Below, piece after piece: positions 3,490 to 23,794 of a DNA stretch of 64,000 nucleotides (position 1 is the stretch's first letter; each line of letters opens with the position of its first letter). This DNA is from Shigella phage phi25-307. Location of the stretch: the sequence record MG589383; one strand, given 5' to 3'. The translations under genes and the position numbers were made by a program. The notes beneath the pieces are model-generated. The model was not told the DNA's origin. It saw only the letters and a list, made by a program, of their open reading frames with translations, and searched no databases.

Positions 3490-3970
3490 TAAAAAGGTAA
3501 TGATTCCCAAATTAGGGCTCAAACATTATAATCTTTTAAAGGACGTTAAAGGCCCTGATGAAAACATGAAAATCTTAGCAGATTCTATTTGTAAAAATAT
3601 GAGTCCAGCAGATTTTGATTTTGCATGTCTACACATATTGGAATTTAATAACAAACTTAAGTCTGAAGTTGAAAAAGATGGATTCACTTATAAACTAGAT
3701 GACGTCTATGTATGCCAACGAACAGAATTCCAATTTCAAGGTAATACTTTTTATTTTAGACCCCCGGGCAAATTTGAACAATTCGCTACAATCAGTGAAA
3801 TGCTATCAAATTGCTTAATAAAAGTTAATGACGAAGAGAAAGAAATTTCTTTCCTTGAGATGCCTGCTTTTGTAATCAAATGGGCAGAAGACCTTTCGAC
3901 AACTATTGCTATTCCAGGCCCTAATGGCCCTATTAAGGGTATAGCAGAAATTATTGGATTGCTTGAATGA
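3437..3970 (+). CDS. 28: baseplate hub distal subunit gp28 (177 aa)
   Basis: Size identical to T4 gp28, synteny; overlaps 3-prime end of gene 27. Confidence 0.82.
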
Positions 3971-5739
3971 AACCTGAAGAAATGAAATCCATGCGTAGAA
4001 ATAAGGTCATTGCCGATAATAAACCACAAAAAGTAGCTGCAACAGCAGCTACTGATTCATTAGAAGCATTGAATGATATTTCATCAAAACTAGACGATGT
4101 CCAAGCCGCGTCTGAACTCACATCACAAAGTGTAGAAGATAAAGGCAATGGAATTATTGAATCAATTGGAGACTTAAAGAATTCGACAGATAATACTGCT
4201 GAAGGCACAGAGCTTATCGCAGAAGTTATTGAAAAACAAACTGAAGTCACTAAAAGTATAAACGAAGTTTCTAGTGCAATAAGCTCCAAGTTAGACCGAT
4301 TAGCTACATTATTAGAGCAAAAATTACAAACATCTACCGCTATTCAAAATACAGGAGGCACCTCTCTTGAAGTAATTGAGAACGCAATACCTGTTAAAGT
4401 GGTTGAGAATGAAACTTATGATGAGCTGTTTAAAGCATTACCTACACCTGAAAAGATTGATAATAAGCCAGACGAAGATTTCTTCCCAGCCCCGGTTCAA
4501 GAAAGTGCTAATTCTACTTCTGATTCTAAAGGCGGGATTAGCTTTAAATTGAGCGATAAAATTGCAATGCTCACCAAAACAGTTCAAGCCGGGTTTAATA
4601 AATCAATATCAATTTCTGACAGAATTGCTGGAATGCTTTTCAAATACACTATAACGGCTGCTATTGAAGCAGCAAAAATGGCCGCACTTATTCTTGGTAT
4701 TGTTATCGGTATTGATTTATTGATAGTCCATTTCAAATATTGGACAGACAAGTTCACTTCTGCCTGGGATTTATTTGATGAAAACTTTACTAAATTCTCC
4801 GATGAAGCTAAAGAGTGGGGTAAATTCTTAAGTGATATATTCACTTCTATTGACTCTATAAAACAATTGTGGGAAGCTGGAGACTGGGGTGGTTTAACCG
4901 TTGCTATTGTCAAAGGTGTAGGAACAGCATTAATGAACTTAGGTGAACTAATTCAATTAGGAATGGCTAAACTCTCCGCGTCTATATTGCGTGCTATAGG
5001 TTTTGGTGATACCGCAGACGAAATAGAAGGACGTGCTTTGGAAGGATTCCAAGAAACTACTGGGAACACATTAAAGAAAGAAGACCAAGAGAAAGTCGCT
5101 AAATATCAAATGAAGCGTGACGATGGGGAATTAGGAACCGTTTCTAAAGGTCTTGATATGTTACAACGCGGCAAAACATTCGTTACTAACTGGGTTCGTG
5201 GTAATGACAATAAAGAAGAGTTTAGTACAAGCGATGAGCGTGCTGCGGAATCGGCAAAATTAAAAGAGTTACCTGAAGAGGAGCGTAAAGAGGCGTATAT
5301 AAAAGCTAATGAAACTCGTGCGGCACTAGTTAGATTTGAGGATTATATCGATAAAATCGATATGACTAATCCAGAAAATGCTAAAAACGTCGAGAAGTCT
5401 TATGCTGATTTAAGTAAACTTATTAAAGACCCTGAACTTAATAAAACTCCTGTTGTTAAAAAGGAATTGGATGCTAGATTTGAAAAGCTAAATAATAAAA
5501 TGGCTGAAGCCAAAAAAGCCCAGACAACAGTTAAGCCTGAATCTTCGACTAAATCTCCTGAAGCAAAACAAGTTCAGTCAATAGAGAAAGGACGTGCTTC
5601 TGAATCTAAACAACAGCAACCGGTAGCGGCGATTAGTAACACAAATAATGTCGTCAAAAAGAATACCGTAGTCCAGAATATGACCCCTGTAACAAGTACA
5701 ACGGCTCCTGGAATTTTCCATGCCACCGGTGTTAATTAA
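3967..5739 (+). CDS. 29: baseplate hub / tail length determinator gp29 (590 aa)
   Basis: Size identical to T4 gp29, synteny, low-complexity coiled regions typical of a tape-measure-like protein. Confidence 0.88.
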   Translation: MKPEEMKSMRRNKVIADNKPQKVAATAATDSLEALNDISSKLDDVQAASELTSQSVEDKGNGIIESIGDLKNSTDNTAEGTELIAEVIEKQTEVTKSINEVSSAISSKLDRLATLLEQKLQTSTAIQNTGGTSLEVIENAIPVKVVENETYDELFKALPTPEKIDNKPDEDFFPAPVQESANSTSDSKGGISFKLSDKIAMLTKTVQAGFNKSISISDRIAGMLFKYTITAAIEAAKMAALILGIVIGIDLLIVHFKYWTDKFTSAWDLFDENFTKFSDEAKEWGKFLSDIFTSIDSIKQLWEAGDWGGLTVAIVKGVGTALMNLGELIQLGMAKLSASILRAIGFGDTADEIEGRALEGFQETTGNTLKKEDQEKVAKYQMKRDDGELGTVSKGLDMLQRGKTFVTNWVRGNDNKEEFSTSDERAAESAKLKELPEEERKEAYIKANETRAALVRFEDYIDKIDMTNPENAKNVEKSYADLSKLIKDPELNKTPVVKKELDARFEKLNNKMAEAKKAQTTVKPESSTKSPEAKQVQSIEKGRASESKQQQPVAAISNTNNVVKKNTVVQNMTPVTSTTAPGIFHATGVN

Positions 5740-5747
5740 GGATTATC

Positions 5748-6857
5748 ATGATTAGTGTAAAAGAAATAGTAGTAGATGCAAAGGATTTAAATAAAGCAAT
5801 CCCAGTCTCAGAAAGTGCTGGGCAAAGCACTAAAACCGAAACAACTACTAAAACTTATGTTGCTCAATTTCCTACAGGAAGAGCAGCCGGAAATGACTCC
5901 ACAGGAGACTTCCAGGTAACAGACCTTTATAAGAATGGATTATTATTTACCGCGTACAATATGTCTGCACGCGATTCAGGATCCCTCAGGAATTTACGTC
6001 CGGCATACGCCGGCACTTCATCTAATGGTATCATATCAGATTTAACTGATAATGTGAAAGATGCAGTGACTAAATTCTCTAATGGGTTGCTTCCTGCCGG
6101 AGCTAATAAACCTACTATAAATAAAACTCCTGTTGCTAATATACTTTTGCCACGTTCCAAATCTGACGTTGATACAACTTCACATCGTTTTAATGATGTT
6201 GGTGATAGCCTTATTACTAAAGGTGGAGGTACTGCTACGGGTGTTTTAAGTAACATTGCTTCTACTGCAGTTTTTGGTGCATTAGATTCTATTACTCAAG
6301 GGCTTATGGCTGATAATAACGAACAGATTTATACGACTTCTCGTAGTATGTATGGCGGTGCAGAGAACCGTACTAAAGTCTTTACATGGGATTTAACTCC
6401 GCGTTCAACTGAAGACCTTATGGCTATTATAAACATTTACCAGTATTTTAACTATTTCTCATATGGTGAGACCGGTAAATCACAGTACGCCCAAGAGATT
6501 AAAAGTTATTTAGACGAATGGTACCGTTCAACGTTTATTGAGCCTATGACGCCTGATGATGCAGTAAAAAATAAGACATTGTTTGAAAAGATTACTGCGT
6601 CATTAACAAATGTATTAGTTGTAAGCAACCCTACAATTTGGATGGTTAAAAACTTTGGTTATACGTCTAAATTTGATGGATTAACTGACGTATTTGGCCC
6701 ATGTCAAATTCAAAGCGTACGTTTTGATAAAACTCCAAATGGACAATTTAATGGTCTTTCTGTTGCTCCTAACTTACCGTCAACATTTACGTTAGAGATA
6801 ACAATGCGAGAAATTATTACATTAAACCGTTCTTCACTTTATGCGGGGACTTTCTAA
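5748..6857 (+). CDS. 48: baseplate-tail tube junction protein gp48 (369 aa)
   Basis: Size and synteny with T4 gp48. Confidence 0.87.
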   Translation: MISVKEIVVDAKDLNKAIPVSESAGQSTKTETTTKTYVAQFPTGRAAGNDSTGDFQVTDLYKNGLLFTAYNMSARDSGSLRNLRPAYAGTSSNGIISDLTDNVKDAVTKFSNGLLPAGANKPTINKTPVANILLPRSKSDVDTTSHRFNDVGDSLITKGGGTATGVLSNIASTAVFGALDSITQGLMADNNEQIYTTSRSMYGGAENRTKVFTWDLTPRSTEDLMAIINIYQYFNYFSYGETGKSQYAQEIKSYLDEWYRSTFIEPMTPDDAVKNKTLFEKITASLTNVLVVSNPTIWMVKNFGYTSKFDGLTDVFGPCQIQSVRFDKTPNGQFNGLSVAPNLPSTFTLEITMREIITLNRSSLYAGTF

Positions 6858-7819
6858 TGTACTCTTTAGAAGAATTTAATAACCAAGCTATAAATGCAGA
6901 TTTCCAACGAAACAATATGTTTAGTTGTGTATTTGCTACTACACCGTCGACCAAATCGTCTTCACTAATTTCGTCAATTGGTAGTTTTGCTTATAATAAC
7001 TTAGGGTTGGATTCCGATTGGCTAGGATTGACTCAAGGTGATATCAATCAGGGCGTAACAACCCTGATTACAGCAGGAACACAGAAATTAATTCGAAAAT
7101 CAGGTGTAAGTAAATATCTGATTGGAGCAATGAGTCAACGTACGGTACAAAGCTTGTTAGGTGAGTTCACAGTAGGAGCTTATCTGATAGACTTCTTCAA
7201 TATGGCATATAATAATACAGGTTTAATGATTTATTCTGTAAAAATGCCTGAGAACCGATTATCTTATGAAACGGATTTCAACTATAACTCACCGAACATC
7301 CGAATTACCGGCCGTGAAATGGACCCGTTAGTAATAAGCTTTAGAATGGATTCCGAAGCATCTAACTTTAGAGCAATGCAAGACTGGGTAAACTCAGTCC
7401 AAGACCCTGTAACAGGTCTCCGTGCTTTACCACAAGACGTCGAAGCAGATATTCAGGTTAATTTACATGCACGAAATGGTTTACCACATACCGCTGTCAT
7501 GTTCACCGGATGTATTCCTGTTAGTGTCTCTTCTCCTGAGTTAACGTATGACGGTGATAATCAGATAACAGTTTTTGATGTAACATTTGCTTATCGCGTT
7601 ATGCAATCAGGTGCTGTAAATAGACAGGCTGCTTTAGAATGGCTGGAATCAGGACTTATTAGTAGTGTTTCAGGAATGTTTGGAAATAACCAGAATGATT
7701 CTGGTCTAGGAAGTGCAGTATCAAGACTTTCTAGATTAGGTGGGACCGCTGGAGGTGTGTCTAATATAAACACATTGACAGGTGTGGTGAATTCTGCGTC
7801 AAGAGTTTTAGGACTATAA
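6857..7819 (+). CDS. 54: baseplate tail tube initiator gp54 (320 aa)
   Basis: Size identical to T4 gp54, synteny; followed by terminator hairpin. Confidence 0.88.
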   Translation: MYSLEEFNNQAINADFQRNNMFSCVFATTPSTKSSSLISSIGSFAYNNLGLDSDWLGLTQGDINQGVTTLITAGTQKLIRKSGVSKYLIGAMSQRTVQSLLGEFTVGAYLIDFFNMAYNNTGLMIYSVKMPENRLSYETDFNYNSPNIRITGREMDPLVISFRMDSEASNFRAMQDWVNSVQDPVTGLRALPQDVEADIQVNLHARNGLPHTAVMFTGCIPVSVSSPELTYDGDNQITVFDVTFAYRVMQSGAVNRQAALEWLESGLISSVSGMFGNNQNDSGLGSAVSRLSRLGGTAGGVSNINTLTGVVNSASRVLGL

Positions 7820-16838: not shown

Positions 16839-17135
16839 TTACATAAGAAGCAAACGTTCCACCGGAGTACCATCAACCGAAATTACTTTATCAAGGCGGA
16901 AAGAACGCCACTGACCTAACTTGGTGTCGAATGCTCGAACTGATTCACGAGGTTCATAACGAACTTCTGTTGCCGGATTGTTATTTTCGTATTTGACTTC
17001 AAGTTCATCACGGGAGGCAAACATCGTACGAACATCACCGTTAGCCTTTTCAAATACAACACAATGAACGCCTACAGACAGAATAGTTTTAATACGTTCA
17101 CGAAGAACCATAGTTTCTTGTTCAGTTAAAATCAT
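16839..17135 (-). CDS. hypothetical protein (98 aa)
   Basis: ORF between cd and 31. Confidence 0.5.
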   Translation of the reverse strand: MILTEQETMVLRERIKTILSVGVHCVVFEKANGDVRTMFASRDELEVKYENNNPATEVRYEPRESVRAFDTKLGQWRSFRLDKVISVDGTPVERLLLM

Positions 17136-17137
17136 AA

Positions 17138-17719
17138 TTATTCACCACAAAAGTTTCGGATTTGTTCCCAATTCAGAGAACGAAGATTATTACGAGAGTA
17201 CTGAATTACTTCAATACCGGCTTGTTTTAGAATGTCTGCCCAATTTTCAGGAGATCTGTCATATAATTCTGCGTATACAACCTTTTTAATACCTGACTGC
17301 GTAATAGCTTTAGTGCAATCAGGACATGGAGAAAGTGTCGTATACAACGTAGCACCTTCAATAGAATTACCTTTACGAGCTGCAAACAAAATGGCATTCA
17401 ATTCAGCATGGATTTCGTTATTAGCAGACCATGCACTATGAGCGGCCCGATGTTCTTTAGCCAAAACAAAATTATCCACCCGTCCAAATGCTGTAGTGCC
17501 TTCTTTATGTCCGGCAACGATGACCGGGCTTGGTTTATTCTTCAACCAACCGTTTTCGGATGCATGTTCACAACAGTTAACGCCACCTGCTGGTGAGCCA
17601 TTATATCCAGTAGAGATAATGCGTCCATCTTTTTCAATGACGGCACCAACTTTCCATGAACAACATTTTGATTCTTGAGAAATCAGATATGCAATCTGAA
17701 GGTATGTGCTAGCTTTCAT
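17138..17719 (-). CDS. cd: dCMP deaminase (193 aa)
   Basis: Cytidine/dCMP deaminase zinc motifs HAELNA and PCPDC; size equals T4 Cd. Confidence 0.9.
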   Translation of the reverse strand: MKASTYLQIAYLISQESKCCSWKVGAVIEKDGRIISTGYNGSPAGGVNCCEHASENGWLKNKPSPVIVAGHKEGTTAFGRVDNFVLAKEHRAAHSAWSANNEIHAELNAILFAARKGNSIEGATLYTTLSPCPDCTKAITQSGIKKVVYAELYDRSPENWADILKQAGIEVIQYSRNNLRSLNWEQIRNFCGE

Positions 17720-18711
17720 TATTGAACCTTATTAATATAAGTTAACAGCTCTTTAGTTTGTTCCCAACCGATGCACGCATCGGTAACGGAAACGCCATAG
17801 GACATATTATCAGAAATTTTTTGATTTCCTTCATGTAGGAATGATTCTATCATAATTCCTTTGACCAAATCATTAGCTGCTAAATTTTTACCAATACCAA
17901 TTTGATTGCTATAATACCCATCAGCGTTTGCGTGGCTACAGTCAACCATTACATAATGATTCAGACCTAATGCACTTGCTTTGTTAGAAGCTTCTTGAAT
18001 ATCAGAAGAATGATAGTTCGGGCCGTTAGTCCCGCCACGCAATACGATATGCGTATTCTGATTACCTTCAGCTTCAACAATGCCTACAGTACCATCGACG
18101 TCCATACCCATATACCGATGAGGCCAGGCGGCACTATACATCGCGTCTGTAGCTACTTTAATAGAACCATTGGTTGCGTTCTTGAAGCCTACGCACATCG
18201 GTAGACCTGAAGCAATTTCACGATGTGTCTGACTTTCAGTCGTACGGGCGCCAATAGCAACCCATGAGAAAATACCAGAAAGATACTTAATCGTGAATGG
18301 GTCTAATACTTCAGTTGCTAATGGAAGTCCCATACGTAGAAGTTTACGACACAATGTTCGTGCAACTATAAGACCGTGGTTCATATCAAAACTTCCGTCA
18401 AGATATGGATCATTTACAAGACCTTTCCAACCTACGGTAGTTCGAGGCTTTTCAAAATAAACGCGCATCACTAACAGAACATTAGGAAGACGAGTTTGAA
18501 GTTCAGCCAGACGTTTGCCGTATTCAACAGCAGCAATAGGGTCATGAATTGAACAAGGACCTACAACAATAAGTTTGCGTGGGTCTTCACCGTTCATAAT
18601 CGAATTAACTTGTTCGCGATGAGAAGCCACTTGTGATGCGTAAGCTTCCGACAAAGGAATAATCTCAGCCAGTTCTTTTGGAGAAATAAGTTTTCTGACG
18701 ATAGGTAACAT
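17719..18711 (-). CDS. 3-deoxy-D-arabino-heptulosonate-7-phosphate (DAHP) synthase, class I-alpha AroG-like (330 aa)
   Basis: Motifs shared with E. coli AroG along the whole length: GPCSIHDP, VMRVYFEKPRTTVGWKGL.NDP, GARTTESQ.HRE.ASGL, VGFKN.T.G.IKVA.DA, LRGG, D.SHAN, ESFL.EGNQ, TDACIGWE. Confidence 0.85.
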   Translation of the reverse strand: MLPIVRKLISPKELAEIIPLSEAYASQVASHREQVNSIMNGEDPRKLIVVGPCSIHDPIAAVEYGKRLAELQTRLPNVLLVMRVYFEKPRTTVGWKGLVNDPYLDGSFDMNHGLIVARTLCRKLLRMGLPLATEVLDPFTIKYLSGIFSWVAIGARTTESQTHREIASGLPMCVGFKNATNGSIKVATDAMYSAAWPHRYMGMDVDGTVGIVEAEGNQNTHIVLRGGTNGPNYHSSDIQEASNKASALGLNHYVMVDCSHANADGYYSNQIGIGKNLAANDLVKGIMIESFLHEGNQKISDNMSYGVSVTDACIGWEQTKELLTYINKVQ

Positions 18712-18831
18712 AACAATCCTTAGGAGATATAAACAGATTCTGATTCAACAATACCTTTAACCGGATTAGACAGGCTAAGTTGGTAGTGCTCAGATTTATG
18801 ACCATTCTCGATAGTAATGAGATAGCTCTCA

Positions 18832-19068
18832 TTATAGTGTTCCATATACTCGAGTTGCTTCAACAAGACCATCACTGCCTAATTTAAGATTAGTAATTTG
18901 GTCACCATCTTTAGGATTAACGATTATGAGAAAAGAACGTGGAGATTCTTTAATAACTCGTAATGTTGCATCTTGGAAACGTTCAGACACTTTATTGATG
19001 AGTGCTTGAGCAAATTCTTTTACTTTAATCTGAAATTCGTGTACTGTAATTGGGTTTTCACTTAGCAT
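18832..19068 (-). CDS. hypothetical protein (78 aa)
   Basis: ORF with early promoter at about 19095-19125. Confidence 0.45.
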   Translation of the reverse strand: MLSENPITVHEFQIKVKEFAQALINKVSERFQDATLRVIKESPRSFLIIVNPKDGDQITNLKLGSDGLVEATRVYGTL

Positions 19069-19128
19069 TTCTATTTCCTCATTTGTTGGTAGAGTTATAG
19101 TATCACAACTCCACCATGTTGTAAACCA

Positions 19129-19404
19129 TTAAATTGCTTTGCATTCAATTTTTTGTGTACCGAAATTGATATCACATTGGATAACTAAATCGCCGTCAAG
19201 ATCAAATACCACTATGACGTGTGCAGACCCAGGGAGAAGAGTAATAGCAATAGAATCTACTTGGTCTGGGAGCAAAGCATTGAGTACATGAGTTAGTTGA
19301 GCATGAACTCTGAGTTCGGCTGCATTATCAAGCACTTCAAACATATTATTAGCAATAATCTGACTGAAGACTACCTTTACAATTTCAGAATAAGTTGGGA
19401 ACAT
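19129..19404 (-). CDS. hypothetical protein (91 aa)
   Basis: ORF in cd-pseT intergenic block. Confidence 0.45.
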   Translation of the reverse strand: MFPTYSEIVKVVFSQIIANNMFEVLDNAAELRVHAQLTHVLNALLPDQVDSIAITLLPGSAHVIVVFDLDGDLVIQCDINFGTQKIECKAI

Positions 19405-19411
19405 AATTACC

Positions 19412-19636
19412 TCAGTGTACAGTATTTACTTTAACTCGAACAACAAATCGCTCGGTCGGTTCACCTACAGGAACAAACTCTACATGATATTCACCTTTGT
19501 AACGAGTATTCAGATCATTACGAATTCCTGCGAGTTTGTTGATTAATGTAGGACTCATATTAAGTCCCACTAGTTTACGAAGCATTTTGTATGCTTCATC
19601 TTCGATTTCATGATGTTTATCGTACATAGTTTTCAT
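19412..19636 (-). CDS. hypothetical protein (74 aa)
   Basis: ORF in cd-pseT intergenic block. Confidence 0.45.
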   Translation of the reverse strand: MKTMYDKHHEIEDEAYKMLRKLVGLNMSPTLINKLAGIRNDLNTRYKGEYHVEFVPVGEPTERFVVRVKVNTVH

Positions 19637-19807
19637 TTAACCATTCAATTGCCTGGTCGACGTTATCAAATATACCGCCGTCCAACCATTCTTCATGTTC
19701 ATAGTCCAGCACATCAATACCGAACCGTCCATTTACTAAAGGCCATACTACAAACAAATATTCTTTATGCTGTTCGATGGCCTCAATCACTTCATATAAT
19801 CGTTTCA

Positions 19808-19808
<1 letters not shown>
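19617..19808 (-). CDS. hypothetical protein (63 aa)
   Basis: ORF abutting pseT. Confidence 0.4.

Positions 19809-20894
<1,086 letters not shown>

Positions 20895-22660: not shown

Positions 22661-23794
<1,134 letters not shown>

Follow-up and report, generated by a model that had tools for sequence, protein, structure and literature searches.

Phage DAHP synthases with an intact catalytic core and a remodelled inhibitor site: the gene between pseT and cd of Shigella phage phi25-307

The DNA analyzed here is a 64,000-nucleotide stretch of Shigella phage phi25-307 (sequence record MG589383; hereafter, the window, numbered from its first letter). Between the genes for PseT (polynucleotide kinase/phosphatase) and Cd (dCMP deaminase), the window encodes a 330-amino-acid DAHP synthase (DAHP, 3-deoxy-D-arabinoheptulosonate 7-phosphate), the enzyme that controls flux at the entry to the shikimate pathway and that bacterial hosts regulate mainly through feedback inhibition. 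Judged from the residues that set it apart from its bacterial relatives, the protein is probably an early-expressed type I-alpha DAHP synthase that belongs to an old phage clade and is insensitive to aromatic amino acids. In our alignments its catalytic core is untouched, and nearly all of the change that defines the phage lineage is concentrated in the allosteric machinery. An original prediction, made from the letters alone, had placed a DAHP synthase open reading frame (ORF) of this length at these coordinates, an observation that we confirm.

17719..18711, minus strand: coding sequence of the type I-alpha DAHP synthase, phage clade (phrog_5045); 330 amino acids, ATG start

The protein passes the Pfam model DAHP_synth_1 (PF00793; E = 1.8e-74; 250.5 bits against a cut-off of 25.5), the NCBIfam equivalog TIGR00034 for AroF, AroG, and AroH (426.4 bits; cut-off 173.2), and PRK12755 (454.2 bits; cut-off 343). 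Models specific for single isozymes score below their cut-offs (AroG NF006723, 363.9 against 568; AroH NF009396, 383.8 against 463); no AroF-specific model is listed. The best sequence match in the PDB is E. coli AroF (6AGM; E = 3.6e-104), and alignment with the K-12 isozymes gives identities of 51% to AroF, 48% to AroG, and 44% to AroH, with Kimura distances of 0.81, 0.87, and 0.99, respectively. The earlier description of a full-length, AroG-type enzyme is correct as to the type I-alpha class, but the phage enzyme is closer to AroF by overall identity and by the glycine found at AroG position 211, and the AroG model falls short of its cut-off. Full length is nearly right as well, although the first ~9 and the last ~5–9 residues of the E. 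coli isozymes are missing.

All six motifs on which the prediction had relied are present in the translation: GPCSIHDP (residues 51–58), KPRTTVGWKGL (88–98), GARTTESQTHRE (154–165), VGFKN (174–178), DCSHAN (257–262), and TDACIGWE (310–317). The metal ligands C53, H260, E289, and D311 correspond to AroG C61, H268, E302, and D326. The residues that bind phosphoenolpyruvate (PEP), namely R83, K88, G154-A155-R156, K177, and R225, correspond to AroG R92, K97, G163-A164-R165, K186, and R234, and the KPRT motif for erythrose-4-phosphate (E4P) occupies residues 88–91. Thus, every metal- and PEP-binding residue is retained on alignment, and the 11 catalytic positions checked are all retained in each of the 25 phage-clade sequences described below. 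By these sequence measures, the ORF is a metal-dependent type I-alpha DAHP synthase whose catalytic residues are intact, and it is predicted to be competent to convert PEP and E4P to DAHP. Whether the substrate was E4P or arabinose-5-phosphate had been left in doubt by the original prediction. The sequence favors E4P because the protein passes the aroFGH equivalog, keeps both KPRT and the metal-binding cysteine, and has no match to KdsA models in NCBIfam at E ≤ 0.01.

The AlphaFold2 model (predicted local distance difference test score, pLDDT, of 90.1; predicted template-modeling score of 0.91) resembles the DAHP synthases of Neisseria, E. coli, and Francisella (4HSN, 1KFL, and 3TQK) with Foldseek template-modeling scores of 0.94–0.96 and a root-mean-square deviation of 1.6–1.8 Å. 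The modeled fold is a (β/α)8 barrel that carries a β6a/6b hairpin (strands 198–203 and 209–214). The sole segment with a pLDDT below 50 comprises residues 90–94 (18430..18444, minus strand), in the loop that directly follows the KPRT motif. This is the β2-α2 loop, which we take to be disordered in substrate-free DAHP synthase structures; the low score is probably not a defect.

The features that distinguish the phage proteins were sought in a homologue set consisting of the 120 best matches from 5.8 billion proteins, which included 25 phage-clade sequences. A bacterial comparison set of 98 was formed by the 95 best-scoring bacterial matches together with AroF, AroG, and AroH of E. coli. Signature columns were chosen blind to function: the phage clade had to be fixed (≥90%) for a residue that is rare in the bacterial set (≤5%), at positions that are conserved among the bacterial sequences (≥70%). 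Seven of 331 columns qualified: in AroG numbering, P150I, Q151K, D155G, L156I, S180P, F209Y, and T223A. Five of these (P150I, Q151K, D155G, S180P, and F209Y) lie within a set of 14 inhibitor-site or feedback-resistance positions drawn from Jayaraman et al. 2022 (PMC9529685; Fisher p = 1.2e-6), and the remaining two, L156I and T223A, each neighbor a position in the set. The corresponding residues of the window protein are Ile141, Lys142, Gly146, Pro171, and Tyr200, and their locations are as follows:

18271..18303, minus strand: remodelled inhibitor-site loop, residues 137–147 (DPFTIKYLSGI), equivalent to AroG 146–156 (DMITPQYLADL); P150I, Q151K, D155G, and L156I
18199..18201, minus strand: codon for Pro171, equivalent to AroG Ser180 and AroF Ser181; all 25 phage sequences have Pro, and 95 of the 98 bacterial sequences have Ser
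18112..18114, minus strand: codon for Tyr200, the counterpart of AroG Phe209, where the β6a/6b hairpin begins; all 25 phage sequences have Tyr, and 95 of the 98 bacterial sequences have Phe

Isoleucine at position 150 and lysine at position 151 are each found in 24 of the 25 phage sequences. Published work on the E. coli enzymes assigns a role to each of the five positions (PMC9529685). The side chains of Q151 in AroG (Q152 in AroF) and S180 (S181) contact the main chain of the inhibitor, Gln151 takes part in inhibition of AroG by phenylalanine, and a salt bridge formed by D155 (D156) stabilizes the inhibitor site. AroG P150L is completely resistant to phenylalanine, and the S180F, F209A, and F209S variants are also feedback-resistant.

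The phage proteins differ from bacterial DAHP synthases at the N-terminus as well. Equivalents of AroG residues 1–9 are absent from the window protein, and only 5–9 residues precede the equivalent of AroG L16 in the phage clade, compared with 13–50 in bacteria. The start of the protein is fixed, since an in-frame stop codon lies 11 codons upstream and no other start codon is available in between. In-frame stops preclude a 5′ extension at four of the five loci checked, and in the fifth, from Proteus phage PM2, at most three residues could be added. The helical part of the N-terminal extension (residues 11–39) is kept in the AlphaFold2 model. The divergence of the N-terminal regulatory region that had been noticed initially is therefore real, and it takes the form of a missing arm that lies beyond the reach of the ORF. 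This missing arm includes the equivalents of AroG Asp6 and Asp7, which we take to contact bound phenylalanine in the 1KFL structure. The phenylalanine site of type I-alpha enzymes is built by the N-terminal extension together with the β-hairpin (PMC4735112), and AroF becomes insensitive to tyrosine upon replacement of Q152 or deletion of Ile11 (PMC5791370). The two residues of the E24-R124 salt bridge at the AroG tetramer interface gave no such signal, both positions being variable in bacteria and phages. Bypass of host feedback inhibition was among the possibilities raised by the original prediction, and our residue analysis points in the same direction.

Several lines of evidence indicate that the phage proteins form a lineage of their own. 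Phage-type sequences are 319–343 amino acids long and share 57–98% identity with the window protein, compared with ≤55% for bacterial enzymes, and all 200 neighbor-joining bootstraps recover the phage proteins as one clade. Between genera, the rate of nonsynonymous change (dN) is 0.31–0.40 while that of synonymous change (dS) is saturated (>1.8), which indicates that the gene is under purifying selection. Within the genus, the comparison of the window gene with that of phage HX01 rests on five differences (two synonymous and three nonsynonymous), too few for a dN/dS estimate. The GC content of the gene is 0.41 and that of the window is 0.38. As read from these sequences, the gene belongs to an old phage lineage and is not a recent capture.

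One basal phage-type sequence, P0022, is intermediate in character: it has Q151K, S180P, and F209Y yet retains Pro150, and its N-terminus, at nine residues, is somewhat longer. It is encoded on T4-like metagenomic contigs (2517-3515 on L008 and 2010-3008 on L009), one of which comes from a crustacean metagenome, beside genes for a 394-amino-acid kinase-like protein and a DUF2828 protein. The succession of changes in the pocket could be read from P0022. In the neighbor-joining tree, the sister of the phage clade is a pair of divergent bacterial sequences, P0086 and P0096 (360–374 amino acids), which also have proline at the Ser180 position in an otherwise very different pocket (QPMAAGY ... H). 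We do not trust this placement, for which long-branch attraction is a possible cause, and it does not fix the donor lineage. The pair may represent a second naturally deregulated lineage.

The gene itself is already known from RefSeq, PHROGs, and a few genome papers; the original prediction, which implied that it was new, overstated its novelty, for it is routinely annotated in Mosigvirus. The surrounding 2-kb region is 98.5–99.6% identical in nucleotide sequence to many Mosigvirus phages of Escherichia and Shigella (among them PNJ-9, HX01, ST0, SF, and JS09), which places the window in Mosigvirus and sets it apart from T4, and the protein shares 98–99.7% amino-acid identity with the products of annotated genes in HX01, PNJ-9, and JS09. 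In RefSeq, the HX01 gene is gp250, "phospho-2-dehydro-3-deoxyheptonate aldolase." The same aldolase name is given to phrog_5045, which is filed under auxiliary metabolic genes and which the window protein matches with 603.3 bits (residues 1–330 against profile positions 8–337 of 341). A genome paper mentions the gene as a putative auxiliary metabolic gene (PMC11845039), and another mentions it as a domain match (PMC8022965). What the present analysis adds is the structure of the phage clade, the inhibitor-site substitutions that are fixed throughout it, and the N-terminal truncation.

A tblastn search found the gene in 211 phage records, all with at least 80% query coverage. Copies that are 58–77% identical occur in T4-like phages of Klebsiella, Enterobacter, Erwinia, Serratia, Providencia, and Proteus; named carriers also include ST0, Klebsiella phage F48 (gp193), and Proteus phage PM2 (gp158). 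The T4-type cd gene is present in 1215 records, so that roughly one in six has the DAHP synthase. The slot between pseT and cd holds the gene in Mosigvirus, Marfavirus (F48), and Bragavirus (PM2). It is separated from cd by 2 nucleotides in F48 and by two small ORFs in PM2. Across these genera the slot is conserved and translational coupling to cd is not.

Two further groups of phage-labeled homologues fall outside this lineage. Aeromonas phage HJ05 (79 kb), an unrelated phage that is not T4-like, encodes a 387-amino-acid "hypothetical protein" (locus 3899-5062) that is a DAHP synthase homologue with 38% identity; its neighbors are all unannotated, and this function appears to have been acquired there independently. 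Two contigs named "Acinetobacter phage MD-2021a" (CAKLQH020000056.1 and CAKLQH020000043.1; 13 and 24 kb) carry aroF_1 and aroF_2 with 45–47% identity, which is in the bacterial range. These may be bacterial contigs that were binned as phage.

Around the DAHP synthase gene, the window is organized as follows:

16839..17135, minus strand: 31.1 homologue (WYL_2 / SH3 β-barrel), by blastp against T4
17138..17719, minus strand: cd, dCMP deaminase of 193 amino acids; Pfam dCMP_cyt_deam_1 (1.6e-26), phrog_174, 73% identity to T4 Cd
17717..17721, minus strand: TAATG overlap of the DAHP synthase stop codon and the cd start codon, seen in the sequence
18717..18721, minus strand: Shine-Dalgarno-like AAGGA, 5 nucleotides 5′ of the DAHP synthase ATG
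18720..18845, minus strand: 41-amino-acid ORF; its start overlaps the cd.2 homologue by 14 nucleotides and its stop lies 8 nucleotides before the DAHP synthase ATG
18832..19068, minus strand: cd.2 homologue (DUF7320), 65% identity to T4 Cd.2
19097..19125, minus strand: sigma-70-type promoter-like site (TTTACA, 17 nucleotides, TACTAT, with TG); 9 of 12 matches plus TG
19129..19404, minus strand: cd.3 homologue (DUF7355), 79% identity to T4 Cd.3
19617..19808: cd.4 homologue, by blastp against T4; directly abuts pseT
19808..20707, minus strand: pseT, polynucleotide kinase/phosphatase, 75% identity to T4 PseT; upstream boundary of the slot

Blastp matched window ORFs to T4 rIII, gp31, 31.1, cd, cd.2, cd.3, cd.4, and pseT. 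In T4, the interval between cd and pseT contains only cd.1 through cd.5, in agreement with the initial statement that T4 does not carry this enzyme; in the window, the place of T4 cd.1 is taken by the DAHP synthase and the 41-amino-acid ORF. The location between pseT and cd that had been proposed for the gene is likewise borne out by the sequence. Its stop codon (TAA, 17721-17719) and the ATG of cd (17719-17717) have one base in common. The translational coupling that had been read from this overlap does not extend to other genera. Since F48 and PM2 lack the overlap, proximity to cd says little about a functional link. An aagga or aaggaa also lies 5′ of the DAHP synthase genes of HX01, F48, and the P0022 contig.

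The product of the 41-amino-acid ORF, MEHYNESYLITIENGHKSEHYQLSLSNPVKGIVESESVYIS, is annotated as a hypothetical protein in PNJ-9 and is unannotated in the RefSeq entry of HX01; blastp of the window ORFs against T4 found no homologue of it. Some names in the databases appear to be wrong and to have been propagated. The 31.1 homologue is called "tail fibers protein" and the cd.2 homologue "olfactory receptor-like protein" (their counterparts at the HX01 locus lie at 4740-5036 and 6732-6968), and some records list cd as "ribD riboflavin biosynthesis protein" or as "tRNA-specific adenosine deaminase." In PNJ-9, the closest relative, a SegD homing endonuclease gene (PNJ-9 locus 22711-23433) that is absent from the window lies between pseT and the cd.4-like ORFs, and at this junction Proteus phage PM2 carries another homing endonuclease (PM2 locus 2106-2822). 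The interval between pseT and cd may be a hotspot for mobile endonucleases.

The promoter-like site at 19097..19125 sits in the 60-nucleotide gap between the cd.3 and cd.2 homologues, and the T4 early promoter Pe133295 is found at the same junction. It is likely an early promoter that feeds cd.2, the 41-amino-acid ORF, the DAHP synthase, and cd, an assignment that rests solely on the positional match to Pe133295. From this site down to cd and 31.1, the genes overlap or are separated by gaps of no more than 8 nucleotides. The promoter-like site and the tightly packed genes downstream of it make early cotranscription of cd.2, the 41-amino-acid ORF, the DAHP synthase, and cd plausible. A scan of the window for terminators did not exceed shuffled sequences (3 versus 3.4).

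From these observations we infer a model that spans the activity of the enzyme, its early transcription, its insensitivity to feedback, and its benefit to the phage. The DAHP synthase would be transcribed early, from the site at the cd.3/cd.2 junction, within a packed run of genes. Its catalytic barrel is unchanged while the machinery through which phenylalanine, tyrosine, or tryptophan shuts down the bacterial enzymes has been specifically remodelled. The side chains that contact the main chain of the inhibitor are replaced (Gln151 by Lys and Ser180 by Pro), the aspartate of the site-stabilizing salt bridge is lost (Asp155 to Gly), and Pro150 to Ile and Phe209 to Tyr alter positions at which single substitutions render AroG feedback-resistant. 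The extreme N-terminal arm (AroG 1–9) is absent as well. With its allosteric site remodelled and its arm truncated, the enzyme is predicted to be uninhibited by aromatic amino acids. Whatever the size of the aromatic amino-acid pools, the shikimate/chorismate pathway would then remain open to carbon during infection, and pre-existing host enzymes would carry out the later steps. The ±20 kb around the DAHP synthase gene of PNJ-9 contain no second gene of shikimate or aromatic amino-acid metabolism. The benefit might consist of aromatic amino acids for a proteome rich in tyrosine and phenylalanine, chorismate-derived cofactors such as folate, or a drain on E4P and PEP that favors ribose-5-phosphate. 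The predicted proteome of the window contains 4.4% phenylalanine and 4.1% tyrosine, and that of E. coli contains about 3.9% and 2.8%, respectively.

Several points weigh against an enzyme of this kind. The inhibitor site retains D146, the AroF-type P148, L179, the Gly211 of Tyr-type enzymes, and the whole β6a/6b hairpin, so that residual or altered regulation is possible. Within the phage clade, conservation is 0.91 at the remodelled and other inhibitor-site positions versus 0.74 elsewhere, which suits a pocket that is still being selected no less than one that has simply been lost. The list of 14 positions was compiled after the alignment had been seen, and the bacterial set does not sample the type I-alpha enzymes evenly. 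Equivalent substitutions may act differently across DAHP synthases (PMC9529685). Our full-text literature searches returned annotation-level mentions of the phage genes; for no phage member did they return an assay of the enzyme, data on its expression, or the phenotype of a mutant. The scan for sigma-70 promoters was not enriched over shuffled sequences (21 found versus 17.5 ± 4.8 expected). Finally, the argument from aromatic demand is weak because T4, likewise AT-rich and with a proteome rich in tyrosine and phenylalanine, manages without the gene.

The retained features would suit an ordinary, AroF-like, tyrosine-sensitive isozyme that acts through gene dosage, its altered pocket residues being tolerated variants. 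Of the three E. coli isozymes, AroF is nearest by identity (51%) and Kimura distance (0.81), the Gly at AroG 211 and the Pro at AroF 148 are those of Tyr-type enzymes, and D146, L179, and the hairpin are kept. We nevertheless consider this explanation unlikely. Q151K, S180P, D155G, and P150I occur together with loss of the N-terminal arm, the changes are fixed throughout the clade and absent from about 95% of bacterial homologues, and at several of these positions one change is enough to abolish inhibition of AroG or AroF (PMC9529685, PMC5791370). Alternatively, the pocket could have been re-tuned, with Lys142, Pro171, Tyr200, and Gly146 binding a nonaromatic effector (a nucleotide or a phage-made metabolite) or a protein partner that places shikimate entry under a phage-specific signal, such as one tied to nucleotide metabolism. 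The remodelled positions are nearly invariant across a range of 57–98% identity and more conserved than the remainder of the protein (0.91 versus 0.74), the hairpin has been kept rather than deleted, and the gene is found among nucleotide-metabolism genes in all genera examined. However, these residues belong to the tight-dimer interface and lie ~8.5 Å from the active site (PMC9529685, PMC4735112), where their conservation could be due to structural constraint and nothing else. With the N-terminal arm, part of the pocket has gone as well, and none of our results points to a candidate ligand. Such re-tuning seems improbable to us.

It is also conceivable, if doubtful, that the same enzymology serves another purpose: consumption of E4P could pull the nonoxidative pentose-phosphate pathway toward ribose-5-phosphate and so supply nucleotide synthesis, or chorismate could be boosted for synthesis of p-aminobenzoate and folate. 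The reasoning draws on the links of E4P to pentose phosphates and of chorismate to p-aminobenzoate and folate; T-even phages are heavy users of folate. In its favor are the consistent location of the gene among early genes of nucleotide metabolism (cd, with nrdAB, td, and frd close by) and the solitary state of the shikimate gene in the ±20 kb of PNJ-9. But the argument is purely inferential, the adjacency to cd is loose (two ORFs intervene in PM2), and the content of small ORFs between pseT and cd varies between T4 and the phages examined. Moreover, folate is a recycled cofactor for which little new synthesis is needed. We regard as highly improbable a final group of explanations, in which the gene encodes a 3-deoxy-D-manno-octulosonate 8-phosphate (KDO8P) synthase-like aldolase that uses arabinose-5-phosphate, encodes a pseudoenzyme, or represents contaminating host DNA or a recent capture. 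DAHP and KDO8P synthases do share Pfam PF00793, but a KDO8P synthase is ruled out by the aroFGH equivalog, the KPRT motif, the metal-binding cysteine, and the lack of a KdsA match at E ≤ 0.01. A pseudoenzyme is ruled out by catalytic residues that are conserved throughout a clade under purifying selection. One member of the cluster, P0001, is labeled "Escherichia coli" in NCBI, as might be expected of a contaminant, but its record is a phage-sized contig of 170.9 kb. Contamination and recent host capture are further contradicted by an identity of only 51% to host AroF, an ameliorated GC content (0.41 versus 0.38), the monophyly of the clade, and synteny in more than 200 phage genomes.

If the phage enzyme is indeed insensitive to aromatic amino acids, a single uninhibitable enzyme would be an economical means of overriding host control without the rest of the pathway. 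Such an enzyme would provide a testable mechanism for an auxiliary metabolic gene that is carried by about one-sixth of cd-bearing phage records and has previously been noted in annotations only. The clade would also offer metabolic engineers natural, stable, feedback-resistant type I-alpha enzymes over a range of 57–98% identity. At the least, the five or six substitutions and the N-terminal truncation constitute a testable prediction of natural feedback resistance.

The closest characterized relative is E. coli AroF (PDB 6AGM/6AGL), which is 51% identical over its full length and shares with the phage enzyme its metal, PEP, and E4P residues, the glycine that discriminates between phenylalanine and tyrosine, the proline at AroF position 148, and the same barrel with its β6a/6b hairpin. 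The phage protein differs in that it lacks AroF residues 1–10, including N8, such that phage L2 aligns with Ile11. It also has K, P, G, I, and Y in place of AroF Q152, S181, D156, P151, and F210, respectively, and it is shorter by five residues at AroG 286–290, by three near 312–315, and by ~9 at the C-terminus. Engineered feedback-resistant variants (AroG P150L, S180F, D146N, and F209A/S; AroF P148L, Q152I, and deletion of Ile11; PMC9529685, PMC5791370) are changed at the same positions as the phage enzyme, namely 150, 151, 180, 209, and the N-terminal arm. The phage changes, in contrast, are natural, long fixed, and combined (at least five plus the truncation), they introduce other residues (I, K, P, Y, and G), and their effect is a predicted one. 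The T4-like phage aldolases of phrog_5045 represent the same gene in the same slot between pseT and cd, and nothing substantive separates them from the window gene. The type I-beta DAHP synthases (see also PMC4735112) are unregulated bare barrels for which the expected outcome is the same, namely freedom from aromatic feedback. They are ~30% identical to type I-alpha enzymes and have neither an N-terminal extension nor a hairpin, whereas the phage enzyme keeps the hairpin and most of the extension.

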